Shown piece after piece: positions 2,598 to 17,164 of a DNA stretch of 52,658 nucleotides (within the stretch, counting starts at the first letter, position 1; every line of letters starts with the position of its first letter). Made by a program: the position numbers and the translations under genes. The notes under the pieces were generated by a model, which ran no database searches, was not told the origin of the DNA, and was given only the letters and a program-made list of their open reading frames with translations. Source of the DNA: Dehalococcoidia bacterium (GTDB lineage Bacteria > Chloroflexota > Dehalococcoidia > GIF9 > UBA5629); assembly GCA_011170325.1 (NCBI GenBank), contig DUEX01000015.1:1-52658 (forward strand). Reading direction: 5' to 3'.

Positions 2598-3266
2598 GTG
2601 CGCCTATTTCTAGATACGGCCAATATTGACCATATCCGCCACGGAGTTAAGCTGGGGGTAATCACCGGGGTGACCACTAATCCCAGCCTAGTCTCCAAAG
2701 AGGGCAAAGTGGATTATAAACACCTTGTCCAGGAAATCTGTTCCATTGTCCCTGGTCCGGTATCAACTGAGGTACTAAGTCAGGACGTCTCAGGGATGGT
2801 TGCTGAGGCCAGGCAAATTGCCACTTGGGCAGAAAATGTGGTGGTAAAAATTCCGGCTAGCCTTGAAGGTGTTGAAGCTACCCATCAACTGGCTAAGGAA
2901 AACATAAAAGTGAACTTTACCCTATGTTTCTCTCTAAACCAAGCTCTCCTCGGGGCTCTAGCCGGGGCTGCCTTTGTCAGCCCCTTTGTTGGCAGGCTGG
3001 ATGATATCGGCGAACATGGCATGAGGCTGGTAAAAGAGATTGTCGAGGTATTCAAGAAATACCCCGACTCTATAAAAACACAACTAATCGCCGCCAGTAT
3101 CAGGCATCCGCAGCATTGTATTGAGGCGGCTGAAGCTGGTGCCCAAATTGCCACCGTTCCCTACCAAGTGTTGATGCAGATGATACGACATCCACTTACT
3201 GACATTGGTATCAGCCGCTTTCTGGAGGACTGGCACAAAGTAATGGGTGAAGGCAAGAGCATATGA
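2598..3266 (+). CDS. Transaldolase-family fructose-6-phosphate aldolase / short transaldolase
   Basis: 222 aa with a GTG start. [13 protein letters not shown]...GVTTNPSL is typical of the Fsa/TalC subfamily. Confidence 0.9.
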
Positions 3267-3353
3267 CCGAGGTAGTTTACTGGCAGTAAATTGTCACTCT
3301 GATTCTATGACGAGGGATGTCTTTCTTCATAAAATATGTGAGAGGTTTAGAAA

Positions 3354-4616
3354 ATGAATATTTCTGAATTGGAAACCAAAACTCGGGATGAATTGATCGA
3401 GCTAGCCAAACAGCAAGGAGTCGACGGCTATAGTGGGCTGAAAAAGCCGGAGCTCATTCTGCGCCTCATTCAAGCTCAAGCTGAACAGCAGGGCTACTCG
3501 TTCCTTGGCGGTGTCTTAGATATTATGGATGAGGGCTATGGCTTCTTACGCCAGGATAATCTTCTTCCTGGACAGAACGACATCTACATTTCCAACTCAC
3601 AGATTCGCCGCTTCGGCTTAAAATCCGGAGACACTGTCTCCGGACAAGTCAGACCACCTAAAGACGGTGAAAAGTACTGCAGCCTGGTACGTGTCGAATC
3701 AGTAAATGAGCTCGATCCAGAGCAAGCTAAGAATCGAATTCATTTCAACTCCTTGACACCTACCTTTCCCGATAAGCTGTTCAACTTAGAGACTAACCAC
3801 CATAACTTATCAACACGGCTCATCAACTTGGTAGCTCCTATCGGCCGCGGTCAACGTGGGCTCATTGTATCACCGCCCAAGGCCGGCAAGACTGTGCTGC
3901 TAAAGCATATCGCCAATGCCATCACCAGTAACTACACTGAGCCTCATCTCATGGTCTGTCTCATTGGCGAAAGACCTGAAGAGGTTACTGACATGAAGCG
4001 CTCAGTGAAAGCCGAAGTCATCGCTGCTACCTTCGATGAGCCAGTAGAGAATCACACTCGAGTAGCTGAATTAGCTCTGGAGAGAGCCAAAAGACTGGTA
4101 GAAGTAGGCAAGGATGTAGTCATTCTGCTTGATGGTATTACCCGGCTAACTCGCTCTTATAACCTGGCGATGCCTCCCAGCGGGCGCACTCTATCTGGTG
4201 GTATCGATTCAGTAGCCCTTTATCCACCAAAACGCTTCTTCGGAGCAGCTCGTAATACTGAAGAAGGCGGTAGTCTAACCATTATTGCTACTTGCCTTGT
4301 TGACACCGGTAGCCGCATGGACGAGCTTATCTACGAGGAATTTAAGGGCACCGGCAATATGGAATTACATCTCAACCGTCATCTGGCTGAAAAAAGAGTC
4401 TTCCCAGCTATAGACATCCTGCACAGCGGCACTCGCCGTGAGGAGCTATTACTCGATGAGGCTACAGTAAAACAGATTTGGCTGCTGCGGCGCATAGTTA
4501 ACATGCTAGCCGAAGACTCAACAAACCACACTGAAGCCACGGAAAGGCTTCTTGACCGACTAGCCAAAACCCAGACTAATGCTGAATTTCTGGCAACCTT
4601 ATCCAAGGAAATGTAA
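3354..4616 (+). CDS. rho: Transcription termination factor Rho
   Basis: 420 aa with an N-terminal Rho_N domain ([15 protein letters not shown]), a CSD-like RNA-binding domain and the P-loop PPKAGKT. Confidence 0.97.
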
Positions 4617-4706
4617 GAAATTGCGTCCAAACTACCTGATTAACTCTCCTATACACTTTTGTCGATTTTGTGCTATGATAATGAGCAATATATCTCGGAG
4701 GCATTG

Positions 4707-6494
4707 GTGAAGGTAAAGGCTTCAGTTACAGTATTAGCGCTATTATCGCTGGCTATGTGCCTGATGCCAAGGCCAATCGATGCCTCCAGCCTAACGCTAA
4801 CCCCATCACAAGGAATCATCGGCACAGAGGTCACCATACTTTCTAGCTGCAGCTATGGCACTGGCGATTACCACCTTTATTGGGGGGAAGCTGACAAGCT
4901 TCTCAGCCAGGGTGTAATCGATGAGACCTGTATTTCTATAACTTTCATCGTCCCTGAGGCCGCCAGAGGCAAACACAAAGTCACCCTGAAGATAGGCGAC
5001 GATTCCTTCAATGGTGAATTTACGGTTATGCCATCTATCAGCCTCAGCACCAACCAAGGTACTGTAGACTCAAATCTGACGGTTACCGGGAACGGCTTCG
5101 ATAGTAATGAGTCAAACATTGAGATAAAATATGATAATAGTCCAGTCGAAACTGGGATTGAAGCCAGCAGCAAAGGAAGCTGGCAAAGCACCTTCAAAGT
5201 CCCGGCCAGCACTCGGGGCGAGCATATTATTGATGCTGAAGGCACCACCCCAGCCAGTGAAGTCGACGACCAGACCTTCGCCATAGTTCCTCAAATCAAT
5301 ATTAGCCCAACCTCAGGATATGTGGGTACTATGGTAAGTATAGCCGGCACTGGCTTCGGCAGTGGGGAAACTAACATCACAGTAACCTATGATGGTCTAG
5401 CAGCAAAAACTGGAATTGCTTCTAATGCCATAGGCTCATGGCAATCTAGTTTCACCGTCCCTACGTCCACCAAAGGCAGCCATAAGGTAGATGCCCACGG
5501 AGCGGTTACTCCCGAAGCTGATGTCGCTGAAGCTACCTTTATCGTGTCTCCGGGGATAAAACTGGAACTGGCCTCCGGTCACCTTGGCGATAACATTTAC
5601 ATCGGCGGCAGTCTTTGGGTCAGCGGCATTGGCTTTAAAGAGAATGAGGCTGGAATTCAAGTCACTTTTGACGGCACTTTGGTTGCCAGCGGCATCAGCG
5701 CCGATGCCAAAGGCTCCTGGGTAACTCAATTCGAAGTGCCTCTAAGCACCAAGGGTGAGCACACTGTTGACGCTTCAGGAGATACCACTAAAGCTGGCGA
5801 TGTCGCTGACTCTACCTTAGTCATCTCACCAAGAATAGAAATCAATCCCACCTCTGGAGCCATAGGTGATGACATAGTCATCAACGGCAATGGTTTTGGA
5901 GGAAGCCAAGCCATAACCATCAGCTATGGTGGAAGCCAGATAGCCACCGGCTCAACTACCAATGCCAAAGGTAGTTTCACAGCCAGCTTCAAAACCCCAA
6001 AAAGCCAAGCTGGTGACCATACTATAACAGTCACCGATGCTACTGCGGCTGTAGCCTCAGCCAGCTTCACCATGGAGTCGACACCACCGTCAACGCCCCA
6101 ACTTGTATCCCCTGAAGCTGGCAGCAAGGTCGGTTTTATCGGCAAAACCATTGTTACTTTCGATTGGTCTGATATTGATGACCCCAGTGGCATCTGTTAC
6201 CTGCTAGAAATAAGTCAAGGCACTGATTTCTCCGGCACTATGGTTCGTAAGGAAGCCTTAGCCCAATCCCAGTACACCTTGGCTGATGACGAGGCTCTAG
6301 CCAGAGGAGAATATTACTGGAGGGTGAAAGCTATAGATGGGGCTGGAAATCAGAGTGACTGGGCAACTGGGCAGCTACTTAAGGTTGGTATCATAGAGTT
6401 CTGGCTGTTAACAGTTATTATCCTAGTCGGCATTGGTATAATCACCATCATCTGGCGAATTATATCTATCAGTCGGCGAGGCGGCTGGAAATAA
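4707..6494 (+). CDS. Cell-surface (S-layer-like) protein: signal peptide, five tandem Ig-like (IPT/TIG-like) repeats, a distal beta domain and a C-terminal TM anchor.
   Basis: The ORF is open from 4659, but GTG 4707 is preceded by GGAGG (4696..4700) and begins with the signal peptide VKVKASVTVLALLSLAMCL. The repeat consensus is G.GF......I.V.YDG......G.....GSW...F.VP.S..G.H.VDA.G. The C-terminus is IIEFWLLTVIILVGIGIITIIWRIISISRRGGWK. Confidence 0.8.
   Translation: MKVKASVTVLALLSLAMCLMPRPIDASSLTLTPSQGIIGTEVTILSSCSYGTGDYHLYWGEADKLLSQGVIDETCISITFIVPEAARGKHKVTLKIGDDSFNGEFTVMPSISLSTNQGTVDSNLTVTGNGFDSNESNIEIKYDNSPVETGIEASSKGSWQSTFKVPASTRGEHIIDAEGTTPASEVDDQTFAIVPQINISPTSGYVGTMVSIAGTGFGSGETNITVTYDGLAAKTGIASNAIGSWQSSFTVPTSTKGSHKVDAHGAVTPEADVAEATFIVSPGIKLELASGHLGDNIYIGGSLWVSGIGFKENEAGIQVTFDGTLVASGISADAKGSWVTQFEVPLSTKGEHTVDASGDTTKAGDVADSTLVISPRIEINPTSGAIGDDIVINGNGFGGSQAITISYGGSQIATGSTTNAKGSFTASFKTPKSQAGDHTITVTDATAAVASASFTMESTPPSTPQLVSPEAGSKVGFIGKTIVTFDWSDIDDPSGICYLLEISQGTDFSGTMVRKEALAQSQYTLADDEALARGEYYWRVKAIDGAGNQSDWATGQLLKVGIIEFWLLTVIILVGIGIITIIWRIISISRRGGWK
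4791..6077 (+). repeat. Five tandem ~85-90 aa protein-level repeats inside the surface-protein gene.
   Basis: The repeats are visible in translation (TVTGNGFDSNESNIEIKYDN..., SIAGTGFGSGETNITVTYDG..., VSGIGFKENEAGIQVTFDG..., VINGNGFGGSQAITISYGG...). The DNA copies have diverged. Confidence 0.6.
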
Positions 6495-6570: not shown

Positions 6571-7752
6571 ATGAAATTAATGATTATCGGGTTAGGACAA
6601 TGCGGTTCTCGGATTGCTGATGAGCTTGTTCGCCTAAATCGGCAGGCAGAGTCACATCGGCACACCAGTATAATTACTGGAGCCTTTGCCGTGAATACTG
6701 ACCAGGCTGACCTCACTGGCCTATCTTATATTGGTTCCGACTACATGCATCGTATACTTATCGGGGGGCGTAAGACCTGGGGACATGGTGTGGGCAAGGT
6801 AAACGAGATGGGTGCTGAACTGGCCAGAGAAGATGGTGATAAAGTGATCGATGCTATCAGGACTGCACCCGATTTCTACCACACCCATGCCTTCCTGCTC
6901 ATCGCCGGCAGTGCTGGCGGTACTGGGTCTGGCGCTATATCGATAATTTCCCAGATGCTCAAGGAGCGTTACATAGGCAAGCCAGTTTACGCCCTTGTCG
7001 TCCTCCCCTTTGAACACGAAGAGGTGGCTGAACTGAGAAGCGTCTACAACACGGCTACCTGTCTCAAGTCCATCCATCCGATAGCTGATGGTGTCTTCTT
7101 AGCTGATAATCAGCGCTATGTTAGAAAAGACGCCAGCATGGCAATGAACCTGCAGAAAATAAACAGACAAATCATCGAGCCCTTCTACGACCTGATGTGC
7201 GCCGGAGAGGTGACCAAATACAAGTATGTTGGTGCCAAGACGCTGGATGCTGGCGACATCATTCAATCCATCGATGGCTGGACGGCCCTCGGTGTTGGCA
7301 GAGCTGCAATATCGCGTGGTTTCCGCTCCCCCTGGGAACTGGCCAAGACCAGTTTTCGGGAAAAGAGTGGGGAAACTCTAAGAGCCATGCAAGCTATGGA
7401 CGCTGCTGTAAGTGAGCTTTCTATTGGCGTTAGTCCTGAAGATGCTGGTAGAGCTTTATATCTCGTATCGGCCCCGGCTAGGGAAATGAGTATGGATATT
7501 GCCAAAGGTCTGGGCGATTACCTCCGAGAGATGGCAGAAAACGCCGTAATCAGAGCCGGTGACTTCCCCGGAGACGGAGGTACTGTTGATGTCACCATAA
7601 TGTTTTCTCAGTTAGCCTTTGTCCAGAAGATAATGGACTACTATGACCGGGCTTCGGCCTTTGCCGTCAGCCAGAAGGAGCGGATAAAGGAAACTACCGG
7701 CCGACTCCGTGACATGGAGGATGCAGCTAAGGGGTTGCCCAGCTTAATCTAA
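6571..7752 (+). CDS. Tubulin/FtsZ-superfamily GTPase, CetZ-like (paralog 1, canonical motifs).
   Basis: 393 aa. T1 loop IGLGQCGSR. GHGVGKVNEMGAELA. Tubulin signature AGGTGSG at 6913..6933. LKERYIGKPVYALVVLPFE. FLADNQ. AGEV. T7-like LDAGDIIQSI. C-terminal IRAGDFPG. The overall order matches my recollection of haloarchaeal CetZ1. Confidence 0.85.
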   Translation: MKLMIIGLGQCGSRIADELVRLNRQAESHRHTSIITGAFAVNTDQADLTGLSYIGSDYMHRILIGGRKTWGHGVGKVNEMGAELAREDGDKVIDAIRTAPDFYHTHAFLLIAGSAGGTGSGAISIISQMLKERYIGKPVYALVVLPFEHEEVAELRSVYNTATCLKSIHPIADGVFLADNQRYVRKDASMAMNLQKINRQIIEPFYDLMCAGEVTKYKYVGAKTLDAGDIIQSIDGWTALGVGRAAISRGFRSPWELAKTSFREKSGETLRAMQAMDAAVSELSIGVSPEDAGRALYLVSAPAREMSMDIAKGLGDYLREMAENAVIRAGDFPGDGGTVDVTIMFSQLAFVQKIMDYYDRASAFAVSQKERIKETTGRLRDMEDAAKGLPSLI

Positions 7753-7788: not shown

Positions 7789-9150
7789 TCACTGCCCTTT
7801 AGCCTTTCGTGGCACATATTTGGCAGCAGCCTGAACGACCAGAGCTAGGCTCGTCAAGTAATCATCGTGTCCATCACTGGGGTCAACGAAGAAGTTAAGT
7901 GTCTGGTTGGGACGATAGACGCTCTTAGCTTTCTCTAGCTCAAACATAAGTTCCCTGTAATCCTGAGAGCCATCCTGTTTATACAGTTTTAGCCTGCCTG
8001 AATTGATGGCAGCCAGTAGGTCAAAACCTGCTTCTGACTTAGAGCTCTGAGTGAACTTAAACGGGATAACTTTGCTGCCCAGAGCCTGTCTCAAAAACGA
8101 GGTCACTGATTCACCAACGGCAGTAGCGTCAACTACAATCCGACTGCAACCCCAGACGTTCTTCAGGATATCCACCAACTGGGGGCAAAGGTCCGAGTGC
8201 CTCCTTCCCACCCAGACGTAGTGTTCAACGATGTTGATATGCGGGTCTTTAGTTATTGAGTCGCCTGCTGGGCTTATGACCTCAGCAATGGTGATGACGG
8301 TAGCGTCCCTACCCGGTCTAGCTAAGATTTGCTCCTCGACCACCTCGGACTCGCCAGCCAAGTCGATGCCGGCGGCATAGACTTTCGATGCTTGATGACG
8401 CCGATGAGCTCGTGCATGCTCACCAAGCATCTGAGCTATCTGTTGGCTGGATAGAAAGCCACCGCCGCCACGGATAGGTAGCAAGGCGTATTGAGTTCTG
8501 AAAAGTGGGTGGCTCTCGCCCAGCCTGTCCCGCTCAGCTTCAACAAAAGCACAATATTCAGGATTATGCTTGGCCACTTCCTGCCAATCATATCTGAAAT
8601 GCCTTTTTATACCATCCTTCCTCTCTAGTTCAAGGTTGGTCTGCTTTATCTCCTCAAGCAGGGTGTTATCGTCCCAGGTAGTCCCGTAGTGGACAGTAGT
8701 CACGTTGAAGGCTGAGCCCATAGGTCTGAACTCTTTAGTGTATTTTTCTTTGGCTACATCTTGGGACTCGTCGATCTCCAAGAGGATGTCGGCGGTATGC
8801 CCGACCACCGAAGATGACTCCTCAGCCGATAGAAAAACCTGACGGGCCGCCCCCAGCTTGACGATATAGCCCATCTCAGTTGACCAGATGCCGGCGAAAC
8901 CAAAATCGTCAAGTCTTTCCTTCAGCCTCATAATCGATATCACCGTCTGAGGTTTGAAGGTTGGAGAGCACTTAACAGCACTGCCACCCTTGGCCATGAA
9001 CATTGTTAACAGTAGTACCTCAAGCTGCGCTGATAGCTCATTCTTGCCTCCCTGGCGGGCTATCTCTACAGAAAAAGTCAAGCCTTTCTTTTCTTGAATG
9101 CTCTCTAGGATGGCTTTGGCGACTTCTTGCTGGTACGGTCTTAGTTTCAT
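7789..9150 (-). CDS. Phage terminase large subunit-like protein (ATPase plus RNase H-like nuclease).
   Basis: 453 aa. Walker A-like ARQGGKNE, Walker B LLEIDESQD, and nuclease acidic motifs AAGIDLAG, VVDATAVG and GHDDYLTS. Confidence 0.75.
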   Translation of the reverse strand: MKLRPYQQEVAKAILESIQEKKGLTFSVEIARQGGKNELSAQLEVLLLTMFMAKGGSAVKCSPTFKPQTVISIMRLKERLDDFGFAGIWSTEMGYIVKLGAARQVFLSAEESSSVVGHTADILLEIDESQDVAKEKYTKEFRPMGSAFNVTTVHYGTTWDDNTLLEEIKQTNLELERKDGIKRHFRYDWQEVAKHNPEYCAFVEAERDRLGESHPLFRTQYALLPIRGGGGFLSSQQIAQMLGEHARAHRRHQASKVYAAGIDLAGESEVVEEQILARPGRDATVITIAEVISPAGDSITKDPHINIVEHYVWVGRRHSDLCPQLVDILKNVWGCSRIVVDATAVGESVTSFLRQALGSKVIPFKFTQSSKSEAGFDLLAAINSGRLKLYKQDGSQDYRELMFELEKAKSVYRPNQTLNFFVDPSDGHDDYLTSLALVVQAAAKYVPRKAKGQ

Positions 9151-9485
9151 CTAATTAGCGACTTGACTCCGAGGGGTATGGCTATCTCAGTCAACACCTT
9201 AGTGATAGCTTCCTTAAGAGATTTCTTCTGTTCTTTACTGATGTTGTAGCGGGTCTTGACAAGCCGGGCAATGGTGTTGGCAGCCTCGAGGTGGAGGTCA
9301 AGCCTGTCTGGCTCTTTGCCAATGAGTTCGCAGAGCTTGACTCTTAAGATGGCGATCTCCTCATCAATGCCTTCTATGCCCCAGGCCTGCTCAAGCTGGA
9401 GCTTCTCAGCCTCGTCAAGAACCTGACTGTAGAAGCCGTGCTTCCTTGCGTTCTGATTGCCTTTTGGTGCGCCTCTTTTTGCCAT
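9147..9485 (-). CDS. Putative terminase small subunit-like protein.
   Basis: ATG 9485 gives MAKRGAPKGNQNARKHGFYS..., an N-terminal GNxNAxKHG motif common in phage small-terminase-like proteins. Its stop overlaps the terL ATG (ATGA at 9147..9150). The ORF is open from TTG 9515. Confidence 0.5.
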   Translation of the reverse strand: MAKRGAPKGNQNARKHGFYSQVLDEAEKLQLEQAWGIEGIDEEIAILRVKLCELIGKEPDRLDLHLEAANTIARLVKTRYNISKEQKKSLKEAITKVLTEIAIPLGVKSLIR

Positions 9486-9663
9486 TCTGCTTTGCCTTGA
9501 TGAGCCCAAAGACAAGGATGTGGGCAGCTAGGTCATACCTCTCCTCTTCCAAAGCTATTTTCAACAACTTCACCATAATCAAATATAATTCTAGCACTAA
9601 TGTTCTATTAAGACAAGCCGATATTGTCGTTCCAGCCTTGAGTTAGGAAGTCGTAGCGCCACC

Positions 9664-11578: not shown

Positions 11579-12223
11579 TCAAACCTGTCTGAACAAGGTG
11601 CCAAAGAAAGCGACTATTTTCTCCGCCATGGCTACCTCATATCCCCACCAGAAATGGTCAGCCCCGGAGACAAGCTCAAATTGCTTCGGTTCAGCCGCCT
11701 CTCGATTAATTAGCTCCGCTTTCTGAAGCGAAACCACAAAATCCCCAGCCCCACAGATTATGAGCTTAGGCTTAGCACAGTCCTTTAGCTGGGATACTTG
11801 TGATAGTTCAAGCGGCGGAGAAACAAGTGCCACCGCCTTAACCCGGTCATCACTACAGGCAACCGCCGAAGCCACAGTGGCGCCAAAAGAATAGCCTAAT
11901 AATCCCACTTTATCTACACCCACTTCAGGCTGGGAAATTAGCCAACTTATAGCTGCCGCCACATCCTCTTGCTCATCAACACCGCCGCCAAAACTGCCTC
12001 CGCTGCCTCCTACTCCACGGAAGTTAAACATGAAGGCAATTATAGACCTGTTAACCAGAGTCGAACCCACCGCTAGTATAACATTGTTATCCATTGAGCC
12101 ACCATAAAGAGGATGAGGATGGCACAGGACTACCGCTGGAAAAACTCCGTCGCCCTCAGGGAAATAGCAAGCCCCTTCCAGAGTAAGATTGCCACAAGGG
12201 AAGGATATGTCGCTCCGTCTCAG
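11579..12223 (-). CDS. Alpha/beta hydrolase (HPHPxxGG...GxSxG type) with a probable non-canonical CTG start.
   Basis: The listed ORF starts at ATG 12094, but the conserved N-terminus LTLEGACYFPEGDGVFPAVVLCHPHPLYGGSMDNNV continues in frame upstream. The nucleophile elbow is GYSFG. Between the TAA at 12239..12241 and 12094 there is no in-frame ATG, GTG or TTG. CTG 12223 overlaps the rarA stop. Confidence 0.8.
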   Translation of the reverse strand: MRRSDISFPCGNLTLEGACYFPEGDGVFPAVVLCHPHPLYGGSMDNNVILAVGSTLVNRSIIAFMFNFRGVGGSGGSFGGGVDEQEDVAAAISWLISQPEVGVDKVGLLGYSFGATVASAVACSDDRVKAVALVSPPLELSQVSQLKDCAKPKLIICGAGDFVVSLQKAELINREAAEPKQFELVSGADHFWWGYEVAMAEKIVAFFGTLFRQV

Positions 12224-13590
12224 CCTTTCTTCTCCCTTTTATTCCCCCACCAGGCTTTAAGTCTAGTATTTACTTCCTTTTCATAGCCCTGTTCACTGGG
12301 GAAATAATAACGCTTCTCCCGGAGCGAATTCGGCAGGTTCTGTTGCTCTACAAAATGTCCGGGGTAGTTGTGAGCATATTTGTAGCCTTTCCCATATTCC
12401 AGCTCACGCATCAATCGGGTAACTGGATTGCGCAGGTGAAGTGGTACCGGCTCATTTCGACTTCGCTCAACATCTTGCTGCACCCGAGAGTAGGCGTCAT
12501 ATAAGGAATTGCTTTTCGGAGCCGTAGCCAGATAGGTCACCGCCTCAGCCAGAGCCAGATTGCCCTCAGGCATACCAACAAAATGTGCTGCTTGTTGAGC
12601 TGCTACAGCCACCATCAACGCTTGAGGATCAGCCATACCTACATCTTCAGAAGCAAAGCGCACCAGACGTCGGGCAATATAAAGAGGGTCCTCTCCAGCC
12701 TCAAGCATTCGCCCTAGCCAATATAAAGCTGCGTCGGGGGCTGAACCACGCAGCGACTTATGAAGCGCTGAGATAAAGTCATAATGCTGGTCACCGCTTT
12801 TATCATAAAGCAAAGCCCGTTGCTGTAGCGCTTCCTCAATACTTGTCAGGCTGAGCCGACGATACCCATCAGCCTCAGGCGAACTAGCCAAAGTTGCCAT
12901 CTCCAAGGCATTGAGTGCTACCCGAGCATCACCATTAGACATAACAACCAAATGCCTTAGAGCCTCTCCGGCTAGCTCCACCTTCAATTTCCCTATCCCC
13001 CTCCCCCTATCTTCGATAGCTCGTTCAACGATAGAACGAATCTCTATATCAGTTAACGAATTCAAAGTAAATACTCGGCACCGCGAGAGCAAAGGAGAGA
13101 TAACCTCAAAGGAAGGATTCTCTGTGGTAGCGCCGATGAGAATTACCACGCCATTTTCCACAAAGGGCAATATCGCATCCTGTTGAGCTTTATTAAATCG
13201 ATGGATCTCATCAATAAACAGGATAGTTCGTTGCCCAGATAGCTTGAGCCTATGCTTAGCTTCATCAACGATGCGACGCAGGTCAGCCACACCGGCACTA
13301 ACTGCACTCAGTGGACTAAAATGTGACTTGGTGATGCTAGCAATAACATAAGCCAGAGTTGTTTTGCCACTACCAGGCGGGCCCCAAAAAATCAGCGACG
13401 GCAACTGGTCTGCCTCGATACATTTTCTGAGCACCCGCCCCTCGCCTACCAGATGCTCCTGCCCCATAAACTCAGCAAAATTTAGCGGCCGTATTCTGGC
13501 AGCTAAAGGCATATCACCGGGCAGCTCAGAGTCTACCCTAGATATTGCTTTGCCCTTCGATTCCAGCTGATTTAAATCGAAAAGAGTCAT
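12220..13590 (-). CDS. rarA: Replication-associated recombination protein A (AAA+ ATPase MgsA/RarA)
   Basis: 456 aa. Walker A FWGPPGSGKTTLA, Walker B LFIDEIHRFNK and a C-terminal MgsA_C region (HYDFISALHKSLRGS). Confidence 0.95.
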   Translation of the reverse strand: MTLFDLNQLESKGKAISRVDSELPGDMPLAARIRPLNFAEFMGQEHLVGEGRVLRKCIEADQLPSLIFWGPPGSGKTTLAYVIASITKSHFSPLSAVSAGVADLRRIVDEAKHRLKLSGQRTILFIDEIHRFNKAQQDAILPFVENGVVILIGATTENPSFEVISPLLSRCRVFTLNSLTDIEIRSIVERAIEDRGRGIGKLKVELAGEALRHLVVMSNGDARVALNALEMATLASSPEADGYRRLSLTSIEEALQQRALLYDKSGDQHYDFISALHKSLRGSAPDAALYWLGRMLEAGEDPLYIARRLVRFASEDVGMADPQALMVAVAAQQAAHFVGMPEGNLALAEAVTYLATAPKSNSLYDAYSRVQQDVERSRNEPVPLHLRNPVTRLMRELEYGKGYKYAHNYPGHFVEQQNLPNSLREKRYYFPSEQGYEKEVNTRLKAWWGNKREKKG

Positions 13591-14690
13591 GTTACCTCTC
13601 TCTTTAACGTTTGAGCTACCCTAACCGCTTTATCATAATAATTCTTAACCTCTTCCACATAGGTCAGTGCTGATGCGACCACGGTAACTTGGGCAAAATC
13701 TCTAGCTCCGTAGAAATCACCACCTCTTATTTCAGCATTATGTGCTAACTCCCGCAGGCGATTTCCCAAAGCTTTGGTCATATCAACATTGGCTTCCTTA
13801 GCTGGGACTGAGAGAAGATATAGGGCTTTGCCAGCATCCTCCAATTTGCAATCAATCGAGAACCGGCCCAAAGCTGCACTCATTGCCTCCATGGCTTTAA
13901 GTGTTTCCGAGCCCTTCTCCTGAAAGCCCTGCATCTTTCTCCAAGGAAATCTTGACACCGAAAATTGTGTCTTCCCAACGCCTATCGCTGTCCAGCTTGC
14001 TAAAGTTTGTACCATGTCACCAACGCCTAGTGCCCACACCCCAACATATCCTGAGCCAACCACTTCGCTAGCACAAAGAAGGTCATAGAATGGAAGGGCT
14101 ATCTCTTTATTCAAACTGCCCATATTATCAATTGATGTCGCATTTCCTCCCACTCTGAACCTCTCATTATCCACCAAGAACACAGCGTCAGCTACCTTAT
14201 GAATAGACTTGAGGCAGATAGCCGTATTATAAACACATTGCGGCTCGGTTGCCTCAGGCTCAAAGGGGAGAATGATGAGTGCATAGACCGGTTTGCCTAC
14301 ATAACGCTCCTTAAGTTGTTGAGCCATTACCGGAACTCCGCCAGAACCAAGGCTTCCAGCAGCACCAGCGATAAATAAGAAAGCGTCTGTCTCAAAAAAC
14401 TCACCCGGTCTCATAGCTGCTATTACCCGGTCACCTTCCTCACTCATAAGTGCAGCGCCAGCTTCAGTAGACTTGCCGTCACCTCCAAGGGAACCACGAA
14501 TAAAGATAGGCTGTAGCCACTCAGGCCCAGACTTAGTCAATACTGCTAAACTAGCCTGGTCATTATTAACCGCATAGGCACGGGTAACTATGCTGACATG
14601 TCGTTCAACTTTTGCTCTTTTATTTAACCGAGCAAATTCACTAGCCAGCCTGCAGCCACAATCACCAAGACCAATAACTAGCAACTTCAT
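13587..14690 (-). CDS. Tubulin/FtsZ-superfamily protein, CetZ-like (paralog 2, degenerate nucleotide-binding motifs).
   Basis: 367 aa, collinear with the 6571..7752 product: MKLLVIGLGDCGCR, LKERYVGKPVYALIILPFE, VYNTAICLKSIH, FLVDNERF, PFYDLLCASEV, GSETLKAMEAMSAA, EDAGKALYLLSVPA, IRGGDF. The signature is AGSLGSG (14340..14360) instead of AGGTGSG. Confidence 0.8.
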   Translation of the reverse strand: MKLLVIGLGDCGCRLASEFARLNKRAKVERHVSIVTRAYAVNNDQASLAVLTKSGPEWLQPIFIRGSLGGDGKSTEAGAALMSEEGDRVIAAMRPGEFFETDAFLFIAGAAGSLGSGGVPVMAQQLKERYVGKPVYALIILPFEPEATEPQCVYNTAICLKSIHKVADAVFLVDNERFRVGGNATSIDNMGSLNKEIALPFYDLLCASEVVGSGYVGVWALGVGDMVQTLASWTAIGVGKTQFSVSRFPWRKMQGFQEKGSETLKAMEAMSAALGRFSIDCKLEDAGKALYLLSVPAKEANVDMTKALGNRLRELAHNAEIRGGDFYGARDFAQVTVVASALTYVEEVKNYYDKAVRVAQTLKREVT

Positions 14691-14693
14691 ATG

Positions 14694-15209
14694 CTACTTA
14701 TATCTCCTCACCTGAAAACGGTATAGCTTAATCGGTTCGTCGCCTGATATGCCAGCTTTAGCTCGGCAGATATCAATCTGCTCGTCTACAGTATCCACGC
14801 CTTCAAGGCCAGGCAGCAAAAGTCCTCGCCTAAACCCACACTCTACAATCACGCCATACTTCTTAGGGTCAAGCCGGTCAATGCTATCCACCGGCTCAGG
14901 CTTGGTGAGTATATCTATGCTATATTCCAAATTATCTAACTCAGAAGCCGCAACCGGCGTAAAGCGAGGGTCCTCAGTAGCCGAACTAATAGCATTGGCA
15001 ACGATTTCCTCGGCTACATTCGCCCTAGTTGGCTCAAAGGTGCCAATACAGCCCCTTAGTTCACCATGTTTCTTAATGGACACAAAGACACCAGCTCTTT
15101 CCTTCATTTCAGCAGTAAGCTCCTCTGCTTTGAGCACCCTGCCCTCGCCAATATAACTTTCCACCGCCTCTTTAGCTAACTTTACTATTGGGTGAAGCTC
15201 CTTTTCCAT
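14694..15209 (-). CDS. AMMECR1 domain protein (AmmeMemoRadiSam system protein A)
   Basis: 171 aa with the [19 protein letters not shown] motif typical of AMMECR1. Confidence 0.9.
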
Positions 15210-15210
15210 G

Positions 15211-16029
15211 TCACTGCCTCCTTCCCCCCTTTATTATTATACCAGCGTAGCCGACTACGCTGGTATAATCACCCGATGTGTCACCACTTGTCTGATATCT
15301 AACTAGTTCTGCCTCTCTCCCTCCTAACTCCTTAGAGGCAGAAATAAGGCTAACCGCTGGTGCATAGCCACACATCGATATATCCAACTCCTCAACTCGC
15401 TTCAAGAGCTCATCCTCATTTAAATCCAGTATGGCTTCGATAGCCTGAGCATCTTTCCTCTGAGCAGTTTCCTGCGGTTCATAGTGGGTCATGTCACTGC
15501 TGGCTATGATTACAGTCCCCCGACCTAATCCCTTAATAGCCCTGGCTATTCCCTTGCCGATTTCTTTATAGGCAGCACCGGCCGAGTGGGAGAGAACGAT
15601 AGGCACTATCTCGATGTCTGGCTTGAAATACTGTAAAAATGGAACCTGAACCTCAATGGAGTGCTCATATTGATGTGCCATATAGTCTTCTTCTAAGTAG
15701 CTAGATATAGCTAAAATCTGCTTTCCAAGTTCCGAGTCAATTTCTACCTCACCCAAAGGTGTTTTCCATCTGCCTTTCGTCATGATACTAAAAGGTTTTC
15801 CTCTCCCAGTGTGATTAGGACCTAAGATGACAAAGGTGTCCCTAAATTTGATTCTAGATATAACAGCCCCAGCTACTGGCCCTGAGTAGATATATCCAGC
15901 ATGAGGCGAAACCAGTCCGACTACCTCGACTTTCTCTGCCTTCTCATCAACCAATTCTCTAATCTGTGCCCTAAGCTGGTCGGGTAAGCCCGGGTAAAAT
16001 TGGCCAGCGACAACTGGATTCCTAATCAT
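15211..16029 (-). CDS. MEMO1-family protein (AmmeMemoRadiSam system protein B)
   Basis: 272 aa. N-terminus [14 protein letters not shown], with [10 protein letters not shown] and the DMTHY His/Asp metal site pattern. Confidence 0.9.
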
Positions 16030-16064
16030 AATACCTCCCTTAGCAGAGCTAAAACCCCGCGACG

Positions 16065-17090
16065 TTAACCAACCGTCTTAATATTAAGTTCAGCTCCGCA
16101 AAACTTACACTTTGAACCGCCAATGCCCACCACTTGAGCATCGTAGCCAAATCTTCTAATGACCACTTTGCCACAAGAATAACAAACAGTATTCTCTCCG
16201 TCATGACCAGGGATATTGCCCAAATAGACAAAGCGCAACCCTGCTCTTTTGCCAATATCATAAGCCTTCTCCAGGCTAGCTATTGGGGTCGGCGGCAAGT
16301 GAGTCAGGTAATGATGAGGATAAAACCGGGTCACATGCCAAGGAGTCAGCTCACCCAGTTCATCCCGAATCCAAATAGCAATACCCTCCAGCTGCTCCTC
16401 ATCATCATTCATCGTCGGAATCACATTGGTCACCACCTCGACATGCATCCCCCATTTCACTTGAGCCCGTTTAGCCACCTCGAGAATTCCTCGCCACCGG
16501 GAAATTTTGGCTAAGTCGCGATATAAAGCATCAGAAAAACCTTTGATATCAACCCGCCAAGCATCGAGATAAGGCCCGATAGTATCCAAGGCCTCCGATG
16601 TAAGATAGCCATTAGTAACATAAACACTGTAGAGCCCATCTTTCTTAGCCAGCTTCGCTGAATCCAGGGTATATTCAAACCAGATACTTGGCTCATTATA
16701 AGTCCAGGCAATGCCACCACAATTATGCTGCTTGGTTAATTTCACAGCTTCCTGAGGCGAAATTCTTCGTGAACCCCTCACCATTTCGGCTGGCTCCTCA
16801 ACACAAGAGATCTCCCAATTCTGGCAATGCTTACAATGAAAATTGCACCCCCAAGTACCTAAAGAGAAAACCAAGCTCCCTGGAAAGAAGTGGAACAGGG
16901 GTTTCTTCTCGATAGGGTCAACCGCTACTGACGAGGCCTCAGCATAGTTAAGGATACGAAGAATGCCATCATTATTTCGACGCACTCGACAAACACCAAA
17001 TTTGCCCGGATTAATAACACAACGCCACTGGCAAACATTGCAACGTACTCTAGACCCAGGAAGCTTGTCGTAAAGTATCGCCTCAGACAT
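16065..17090 (-). CDS. AmmeMemoRadiSam system radical SAM enzyme
   Basis: 341 aa. N-terminal Cys cluster CNVCQWRC...CRVR, radical SAM CNFHCKHCQNW, and a C-terminal zinc-ribbon-like CYSCG...CKFCG. Confidence 0.9.
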   Translation of the reverse strand: MSEAILYDKLPGSRVRCNVCQWRCVINPGKFGVCRVRRNNDGILRILNYAEASSVAVDPIEKKPLFHFFPGSLVFSLGTWGCNFHCKHCQNWEISCVEEPAEMVRGSRRISPQEAVKLTKQHNCGGIAWTYNEPSIWFEYTLDSAKLAKKDGLYSVYVTNGYLTSEALDTIGPYLDAWRVDIKGFSDALYRDLAKISRWRGILEVAKRAQVKWGMHVEVVTNVIPTMNDDEEQLEGIAIWIRDELGELTPWHVTRFYPHHYLTHLPPTPIASLEKAYDIGKRAGLRFVYLGNIPGHDGENTVCYSCGKVVIRRFGYDAQVVGIGGSKCKFCGAELNIKTVG

Positions 17091-17135: not shown

Positions 17136-17164
17136 ATTATAGTCAGTCACTAGACAACGCTCAA
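17136..17164 (-). promoter_or_regulatory. Candidate promoter for the radical SAM-to-hydrolase operon.
   Basis: The minus strand reads TTGAGC, 17 nt, TATAAT. A second candidate is an extended -10 TGgTATAAT (reverse complement of 17113..17121). Confidence 0.3.

Follow-up and report, generated by a model that had tools for sequence, protein, structure and literature searches.

A CetZ-like tubulin-superfamily paralog in an AmmeMemoRadiSam gene cassette of a Dehalococcoidia bacterium

The AmmeMemoRadiSam trio (TIGR04335/04336/04337), made up of an AMMECR1 protein (component A), a protein of the Memo/MEMO1 family (component B) and a radical SAM enzyme (rSAM), is spread over archaea, bacteria and eukaryotes. 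Contexts of the Memo, AMMECR1 and rSAM genes were reportedly described by Burroughs and colleagues in 2019, with an abstract that is said to tie Memo to nucleotide-base/isoprenoid modification and not to the cytoskeleton. AMMECR1 and MEMO1 are conserved from archaea to humans, are linked to human disease and have no established molecular function, and an invariant lineage-specific neighbour therefore offers a rare experimental handle on them. AMMECR1 is listed for 429 of 524 archaeal genomes (PMC6393860). Here we describe such a neighbour in a 52,658-nucleotide stretch of DNA from a Dehalococcoidia bacterium (contig DUEX01000015.1; hereafter the window), in which the trio is followed on the same strand by genes encoding a CetZ-like protein of the tubulin superfamily (Tub1), the AAA+ ATPase RarA and an alpha/beta hydrolase, whilst a second CetZ-like gene (Tub2) is found about 6 kb from the first.

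Divergent members of the tubulin superfamily that partner or regulate a canonical paralog are familiar from alpha/beta-tubulin, from BtubA/BtubB and from the FtsZ-like domain of plant ARC3. CetZ is usually described as archaea-specific, whereas the present locus belongs to a class of bacteria that has retained two CetZ-like paralogs in addition to a true FtsZ. The boundary of the archaeal CetZ clade has been set by Thermococcales CetZ (PMC9856176), and interplay between the archaeal paralogs CetZ1 and CetZ2 has been described (PMC13556191). In Chloroflexota-Dehalococcoidia, Santana-Molina et al. (2023) reported paraphyletic sequences that they termed 'CetZ-like', the C-termini of which match the CetZ_C model (PMC9871819).

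The explanation that we favour, and to which we would give an even chance, is that the six genes form an operon and that Tub1 is a captured CetZ-like paralog which depends on the promoter of the cassette and acts on a cytoskeleton made by Tub2.

Tub1, Tub2 and their nucleotide loops

Tub1 scores 74.4 bits against PF00091 (Tubulin; gathering cut-off, GA, 33) and 31.2 bits against PF21011 (CetZ_C; GA 21.6). Its best sequence match in the Protein Data Bank (PDB) is Haloferax volcanii CetZ1 (4B46, 100 bits), with CetZ2 (4B45) at 68 bits and FtsZ and tubulin entries at 24 bits or less. The AlphaFold2 model of the protein, built with 65 homologs (pLDDT 86.1, pTM 0.88), has the two-domain tubulin/FtsZ fold, and Foldseek ranks CetZ2 (4B45; TM 0.81/0.89) first, CetZ1 second and TubZ third, with FtsZ also retrieved; TM values for CetZ range from 0.79 to 0.89 and the Foldseek probability is 1.00 for CetZ, TubZ and FtsZ structures. 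Identity to CetZ is 24–25%. An earlier reading of this DNA from its letters and open reading frames (ORFs; hereafter the sequence-only reading) had called the gene tubulin/CetZ-like, and the two profiles and the fold place it inside the tubulin/FtsZ superfamily.

More than 1,200 homologs of Tub1 are found in a large protein collection. The best 120 are 56–75% identical, and the named ones among them belong to Dehalococcoidia or Chloroflexota metagenome-assembled genomes (MAGs), where they are labelled 'FtsZ' or 'CetZ'. The family is compact, since just 318 representatives reach E<1e-3 after clustering at 50%. Neither Tub1 nor Tub2 is the division FtsZ: they score 21.5 and 55.8 bits, respectively, against TIGR00065, which has a cut-off of 295.2, and a profile search found no match to FtsZ_C (PF12327) in either. 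A phage origin of Tub1 was likewise rejected, with no PHROG match and no tblastn match in 50,697 phage records. We file both proteins as CetZ-like and not as canonical CetZ because our tree is without an archaeal reference set and because the Dehalococcoidia sequences have been called CetZ-like and paraphyletic (PMC9871819).

Two points are missing from the sequence-only reading, namely the existence of Tub2 and the altered GTPase loops of Tub1. Tub2 scores 104.4 bits against PF00091 (GA 33) and 51.6 bits against CetZ_C (GA 21.6), its best PDB match is CetZ1 (4B46, 133 bits), and its C-terminus consists of a linker and a terminal GLPSLI motif (LPSLI end). Tub1 has no C-terminal tail. The nucleotide loops were compared in 53 Tub1 and 39 Tub2 sequences. 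The T3 motif GHGVG is present in every Tub2 sequence (39/39) and in no Tub1 sequence (0/53). T4 reads GGTGSG in 39/39 Tub2 sequences and G[SCN..][LVIF]GSG in 53/53 Tub1 sequences, with a hydrophobic residue replacing the threonine (GSLGSG in the window). At T7, all 39 Tub2 sequences have LDAGD, and the final GD is retained in all 53 Tub1 sequences. Measured against canonical nucleotide loops (a T4 of GGGTGSG type and a GxG in T3), Tub2 is thus canonical throughout (39/39) and Tub1 is not.

The two proteins also differ in how fast they change. Mean pairwise identity is 0.81 for Tub2 versus 0.56 for Tub1, median dN/dS is 0.049 and 0.076, respectively, and Tub1 was the less conserved of the two in 171 of 171 same-genome pair comparisons. 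We considered whether Tub1 might be a decaying pseudogene and rejected this: its dN/dS is low, as expected under purifying selection, and 52 of 53 Tub1 segments are intact, which argues that the protein is functional. In a neighbour-joining (NJ) tree, Tub1 forms one long-branched clade beside a short-branched Tub2 clade, and divergent CetZ-like representatives fall outside both. Sequence comparison thus indicates that Tub1 is a derived, faster-evolving copy under purifying selection.

The CetZ-like pair is additional to the division FtsZ. A Dehalococcoidales MAG (L052, 6242..11176) carries rsmH, ftsA and a canonical ftsZ with FtsZ_C, followed directly by a Tub2-type gene and then nrdR, and proteomics of Dehalococcoides mccartyi lists FtsZ and an 'FtsZ/Tubulin GTPase' separately (PMC8163811); the pair is judged additional on account of these two observations. 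The same MAG indicates that a CetZ-like gene can occupy the division cluster. Two further loci (L056, 10001..14435; L060, 2326..5291) hold a third CetZ-like subgroup between gap/eno and dnaX-ybaB-recR, representing a further duplication of the family within the Dehalococcoidales. One sequence (P0190), in which a SecD-like N-terminus is joined to a fragment of Tub2, was considered as a Rosetta-stone fusion and rejected, as it looks like an assembly chimera.

These features suggest how the two paralogs might work together, the steps being drawn from the motifs and from general structural knowledge of tubulin and FtsZ. Tub2 would be a GTPase-competent, tail-bearing cytoskeletal protein of CetZ type, acting beside true FtsA-FtsZ, and is the likely working partner of Tub1. 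Tub1 would stem from the same stock as Tub2 and would have become fixed between AMMECR1 and rarA. Because its T7 is intact but T3 is missing and T4 altered, it would not be a primary filament protein but might instead co-assemble with, cap or regulate Tub2 filaments: the intact T7 face could engage and activate the nucleotide pocket of Tub2, whilst the pocket of Tub1 itself, with no T3 and an altered T4, would poorly support further filament growth. On these grounds we infer that Tub1 probably modulates Tub2.

Layout of the six-gene cassette

Profile searches agree with the identities that the sequence-only reading had given to the trio, the CetZ-like gene, rarA and the hydrolase gene. The three AmmeMemoRadiSam components are adjacent, lie on one strand and all exceed their curated cut-offs: 293.9 bits for rSAM (TIGR04337, cut-off 220), 324.4 bits for Memo (TIGR04336, cut-off 26) and 142.8 bits for AMMECR1 (TIGR04335, cut-off 99). 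The next-best profile matches of rSAM are protein-directed glycyl-radical activases. RarA has the complete architecture of its family, with PF00004/PF05496 (RuvB_N/AAA), PF16193 (AAA_assoc_2, 96 bits) and PF12002 (MgsA_C, 240 bits).

The ORF listing contains all six minus-strand frames exactly where they had been placed, and direct reading of the sequence bears out every junction: gaps of 35 nt between rSAM and Memo, 1 nt between Memo and AMMECR1 and 3 nt between AMMECR1 and Tub1, then an ATGA overlap between Tub1 and rarA and a CTGA overlap between rarA and the hydrolase gene. A purine run resembling a Shine-Dalgarno sequence can be read 5' of each of the six starts. The best consensus match to a promoter in the region, a putative site identified by consensus match only, is found upstream of rSAM, and a second TGGTATAAT occurs downstream of it. 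Consensus scans detected no convincing internal terminator across the six genes and no minus-strand promoter-like site within the AMMECR1 gene. The packing is therefore operon-like, as had been claimed, with tight junctions and one shared orientation, and the scans add a promoter-like site at the 5' end and no convincing terminator within. From these sequence features we predict a single transcript, the six genes being one Dehalococcoidia transcription unit, and the promoter just upstream of rSAM would drive them all. An Rfam search of the window returned one tRNA and nothing else.

The hydrolase gene was proposed to begin with CTG, and several observations support this start. Its frame contains no ATG, GTG or TTG upstream of 12094, the frame that starts at 12223 is already matched by Pfam from residue 19 onwards, and the CTG (12220..12223, minus strand) is preceded by GGGAGAAGAAAGG, a Shine-Dalgarno-like run. 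Among the relatives, 18 loci have CTG at the homologous codon, 18 have ATG and three have GTG, and every one of these codons overlaps the rarA stop as xTGA; since both the position of the start codon and the overlap are kept, the CTG start is credible.

Table 1. Position and character of the cassette genes, the putative promoter and Tub2 in the window
Feature	Position	Strand	Description
Promoter-like site TTGAGC-17-TATAAT	17136..17164	-	46 nt 5' of rSAM start; 10/12 consensus
AmmeMemoRadiSam radical SAM enzyme (rSAM)	16065..17090	-	341 aa; PF04055; related to PFL-activase-type enzymes
AmmeMemoRadiSam protein B (Memo/MEMO1 family)	15211..16029	-	272 aa; PF01875 270 bits
AmmeMemoRadiSam protein A (AMMECR1)	14694..15209	-	171 aa; PF01871 168.6 bits; directly 5' of Tub1
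Tub1, CetZ-like tubulin-superfamily paralog	13587..14690	-	367 aa; PF00091 + PF21011
RarA/MgsA AAA+ ATPase	12220..13590	-	456 aa; start overlaps Tub1 stop
Alpha/beta hydrolase	11579..12223	-	214 aa; CTG start overlapping rarA stop
Tub2, CetZ-like paralog	6571..7752	+	393 aa; 49% identical to Tub1; found by tblastn of Tub1 against the window

Two sets of genes flank Tub2. Just 76 nt separate Tub2 from the end of an upstream gene in the same orientation (4659..6494, plus strand), which encodes an IPT/TIG-repeat protein of 611 amino acids. This protein has a signal or anchor segment at its N-terminus and, at its C-terminus, a transmembrane helix and a short tail in the cytoplasm; it could serve the CetZ-like cytoskeleton as a partner in the membrane. 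The order rho-TIG-Tub2 is found in about 20 loci. On the other side of Tub2 (7789..9515, minus strand) are a TerS-like gene (122 amino acids) and a TerL-like gene (453 amino acids), the product of the latter matching 96% of a Bacillus phage terminase at 31% identity. No other phage genes lie nearby. The TerS/TerL-like genes keep their place next to Tub2 in about 20 species of Dehalococcoidia, D. mccartyi among them, and look like a domesticated or orphan core-genome pair.

The AMMECR1–Tub1 neighbourhood across the Dehalococcoidia

The locus was surveyed using one genome per species of the Genome Taxonomy Database (GTDB). This gave 71 loci, all from Dehalococcoidia/Chloroflexota and D. mccartyi among them; the search used an alignment of close relatives and samples Dehalococcoidia only, through the best 80 of 180 matches. 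AMMECR1 is directly upstream of Tub1 in all 50 loci that have room for it, and RarA is directly downstream in 42 of 43, where the two genes either overlap or are 8–60 nt apart. The genes for rSAM, AMMECR1, Tub1, RarA and hydrolase are colinear in 32 loci including the window, and chance would not account for an arrangement that is repeated, colinearly, in 30 or more further species-level genomes. Tub2 is found at the equal relative position, convergent and about 4 kb past the hydrolase gene, in 19 loci including the window.

The adjacency of Tub1 to the trio, to which the sequence-only reading had drawn attention, is therefore conserved, and it survives the loss of the genes downstream. In D. 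mccartyi (L054, 11172..20929), the operon consists of rSAM, a LigB-type gene, AMMECR1 and Tub1 only, with AMMECR1 and Tub1 overlapping by 4 nt; there is no rarA or hydrolase gene in the block, and a pstSCAB-phoU operon is found where the window has a Pit/DUF47 pair. In CP070642.1, the order AMMECR1-Tub1-RarA is kept whilst rSAM has apparently been lost and Memo is reduced to a 98-amino acid remnant, although this is a MAG in which the gap adjoins a masked run of N. The B slot itself varies. A LigB/class III extradiol dioxygenase-like protein, which scores 161 bits against PF02900 and still passes TIGR04336 at 42 bits, takes the place of Memo in seven loci (L003 at 2915..3718, L004, L005, L008, L013, L020 and L054), and since close relatives differ (LigB in L008, Memo in L009) the swap has happened more than once.

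The main rival to our explanation starts from this constancy. In it, Tub1 would be dedicated to the AmmeMemoRadiSam system of the Dehalococcoidia as its fourth component, either a scaffold or localiser that binds AMMECR1 or a client modified by rSAM; it is the idea of the sequence-only reading, restricted to a lineage-specific partner or client, and the remodelled pocket of Tub1 would reflect its new role. We regard it as a tentative possibility, with the balance of probability against it. Besides the unbroken record of AMMECR1 upstream of Tub1, it can call upon the D. mccartyi operon, with its four genes and overlapping junction, and upon the persistence of AMMECR1-Tub1 in a locus that lacks rSAM and has little left of Memo. 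The kinship of rSAM to activases that act on proteins would suit a client, and the altered T3 and T4, fixed clade-wide under purifying selection, would point to a new function and not to decay.

Set against this, the association of Tub1 with the trio has a single origin and is confined to one class, whereas the trio is very widespread without a CetZ-like neighbour. Because the trio is so much more widespread than Tub1, Tub1 cannot be its general substrate. Five CetZ-like genes from outside the Dehalococcoidia clade have no trio nearby, and one of them is in a context of archaeal type. Nor is tight coupling of AMMECR1 and Tub1 required: in four loci (L009 at 8193..8688, L007, L008 and L021) an RHH antitoxin and ParE toxin pair in the same orientation has been inserted between them, giving a gap of about 612 nt, and the gap is 50–150 nt in many others. 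CP070642.1 retains Tub1 without rSAM. Partial correlations of distance matrices over the 32 loci, a weak test confounded by length and phylogeny and lacking a significance test, give Tub1-AMMECR1 a value of 0.11, Tub1-rSAM 0.20 and Tub1-RarA 0.59, with no signal specific to Tub1 and the trio.

Contexts of the divergent CetZ-like genes were also recorded. Downstream of one (P0138; L077/L078), FtsH-type AAA proteases are encoded by two genes in tandem, and another (P0127; L075) adjoins two FAD-dependent oxidoreductase-type genes that are possibly geranylgeranyl-reductase-like.

Adjacency has to be read against the wider region. Synteny extends over about 17 kb in about 20 loci, taking in rplU-rpmA-coaE, the six genes, the TerS/TerL-like pair, Tub2, the TIG protein and rho, and because the whole surrounding region is syntenic, conserved adjacency alone is weak evidence of shared function. 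Together with the single origin in one clade and the five outgroup genes without the trio, this counts against the suggestion, made in the sequence-only reading, in which Tub1 would be a partner, or possibly a substrate, of the trio. We consider it rather unlikely that Tub1 is a CetZ-derived pseudo-GTPase recruited to the AMMECR1-Memo/LigB-radical SAM machinery as its physical partner or as a client protein.

Synteny could be taken further, to mean that the adjacency is without meaning and that Tub1, with its own promoter and an unrelated role, is trapped in a slowly rearranging core region. The AMMECR1-Tub1 gaps of 50–150 nt or about 612 nt could hold such a promoter, and the synteny of the region as a whole is what would be expected. 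However, just 3 nt separate the two genes in the window, where the AMMECR1 gene has no minus-strand promoter-like site, the six genes share one orientation and have overlapping stop and start codons, and rearrangements have occurred on either side of the AMMECR1-Tub1 pair but never between its members. Trapping of this kind strikes us as scarcely probable.

The RarA side of Tub1 offers another alternative, in which Tub1 and RarA, an AAA+ ATPase of DNA maintenance, would be a functional pair that helps to replicate or segregate the chromosome, the model being DNA partition of the TubZ type, and the trio would merely lie upstream. RarA follows Tub1 at close quarters in all but one of the loci counted above, the Tub1-RarA correlation is the highest, TubZ is the third-best structural match of Tub1, and the interval from the operon to Tub2 holds the conserved TerS/TerL-like pair. 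Nevertheless, the D. mccartyi block has the trio and Tub1 but not rarA, protein length and shared phylogeny confound the correlation, which comes with no significance test, and Tub1 is closer to CetZ than to TubZ; nor were a TubR/tubC-like partner or centromere repeats seen, although no search was aimed at them. We attach little probability to such a pairing.

We therefore return to the explanation in which Tub1 is a captured paralog acting on Tub2. In this, the operon link to the trio and rarA would most probably be one of shared transcription, with Tub1 relying on the promoter of the cassette; probably no enzyme–substrate relation lies behind it, and we infer that a direct biochemical link is lacking. 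Several points weigh against this explanation. The AMMECR1-Tub1 junction is the sole one that is never broken, and the pair outlasts the departure of rarA and hydrolase from the block in D. mccartyi, an apparent loss of rSAM and most of Memo in CP070642.1, and exchanges of the B component, which is just what a functional link between AMMECR1 and Tub1 would predict. Nor are the two paralogs always close: at several Tub2 loci, the nearest 10 kb contain no Tub1 block. The topology of the NJ tree is rough and the long Tub1 branch may affect its placement, the weakened handling of GTP by Tub1 is read from motifs, and both the single transcript and the Tub1-Tub2 interaction are predictions from sequence.

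Comparison with described systems

The CetZ-like proteins of the Dehalococcoidia and the AmmeMemoRadiSam trio were each known already. What appears to be undescribed is that one CetZ-like paralog invariably follows AMMECR1, that the pair is divided into Tub2, which is canonical, and Tub1, which lacks T3, has an altered T4 and is without a tail, and that Memo and LigB are swapped inside the cassette. The sequence-only reading knew of no prokaryotic link between the trio and a cytoskeletal protein, and no link between AMMECR1 or Memo and CetZ or FtsZ was found in the searchable literature, a search that did not extend to the context figures of Burroughs et al. 2019.

The pair of paralogs is a natural experiment in specialisation within the tubulin superfamily, and Tub1 can be approached in D. 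mccartyi, which is growable and for which proteomic data exist. Were Tub1 to prove a pseudo-GTPase partner of the trio, it would be the first identifiable interactor of a near-universal uncharacterised module, available in a cultivable organism whose operon is exactly the trio plus Tub1. Were the operon link one of co-transcription only, the locus would still be a clear example of a housekeeping operon that has captured a cytoskeletal paralog.

Compared with the AmmeMemoRadiSam system as described, the locus is alike in that all three components are present and adjacent; it is unlike in that the cassette is lengthened by the CetZ-like gene, rarA and the hydrolase gene, and in that the B slot of seven relatives encodes a LigB-type protein and not Memo.

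Memo also invites a parallel with eukaryotes, where MEMO1 is linked to microtubule capture, since in both cases a Memo-family and a tubulin-superfamily protein occur in one context. The eukaryotic link runs via RhoA-mDia1 signalling, APC/CLASP2 and ACF7 (PMC7694686), however, and not through an operon or a direct complex. Moreover, the constant neighbour of Tub1 is AMMECR1, whilst Memo is replaceable, and the analogy is weakened because the Memo slot holds a LigB-type protein in those seven loci. The resemblance is probably a coincidence.

Haloferax volcanii CetZ1 and CetZ2 are the closest PDB entries to Tub1 in both sequence and structure and share with it the Tubulin and CetZ_C domain pair; archaeal CetZ also resembles the present pair in having several paralogs per genome that behave differently. 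Here, however, the host is bacterial, the identity of Tub1 to CetZ is merely 24–25%, and Tub1 has no GHGVG in T3, a hydrophobic residue in place of the T4 threonine and no C-terminal tail. Neighbourhoods of archaeal cetZ genes differ too, comprising genes for type IV pili, cofactors and sugar epimerases and not AMMECR1 or Memo (PMC9856176). The 'CetZ-like' Dehalococcoidia sequences of Santana-Molina et al. are almost certainly the same protein group as Tub1 and Tub2, but they are treated there in one sentence, which does not separate the two paralogs and has no altered loops, Memo, AMMECR1, radical SAM or RarA (PMC9871819).

In having one paralog with a canonical pocket and one with an altered pocket in a single genome, Tub2 and Tub1 resemble the superfamily pairs cited at the outset. 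Tub1 nevertheless keeps the acidic residue of T7 whilst losing T3, and this pattern is identical in none of alpha/beta-tubulin, BtubA/BtubB or ARC3.

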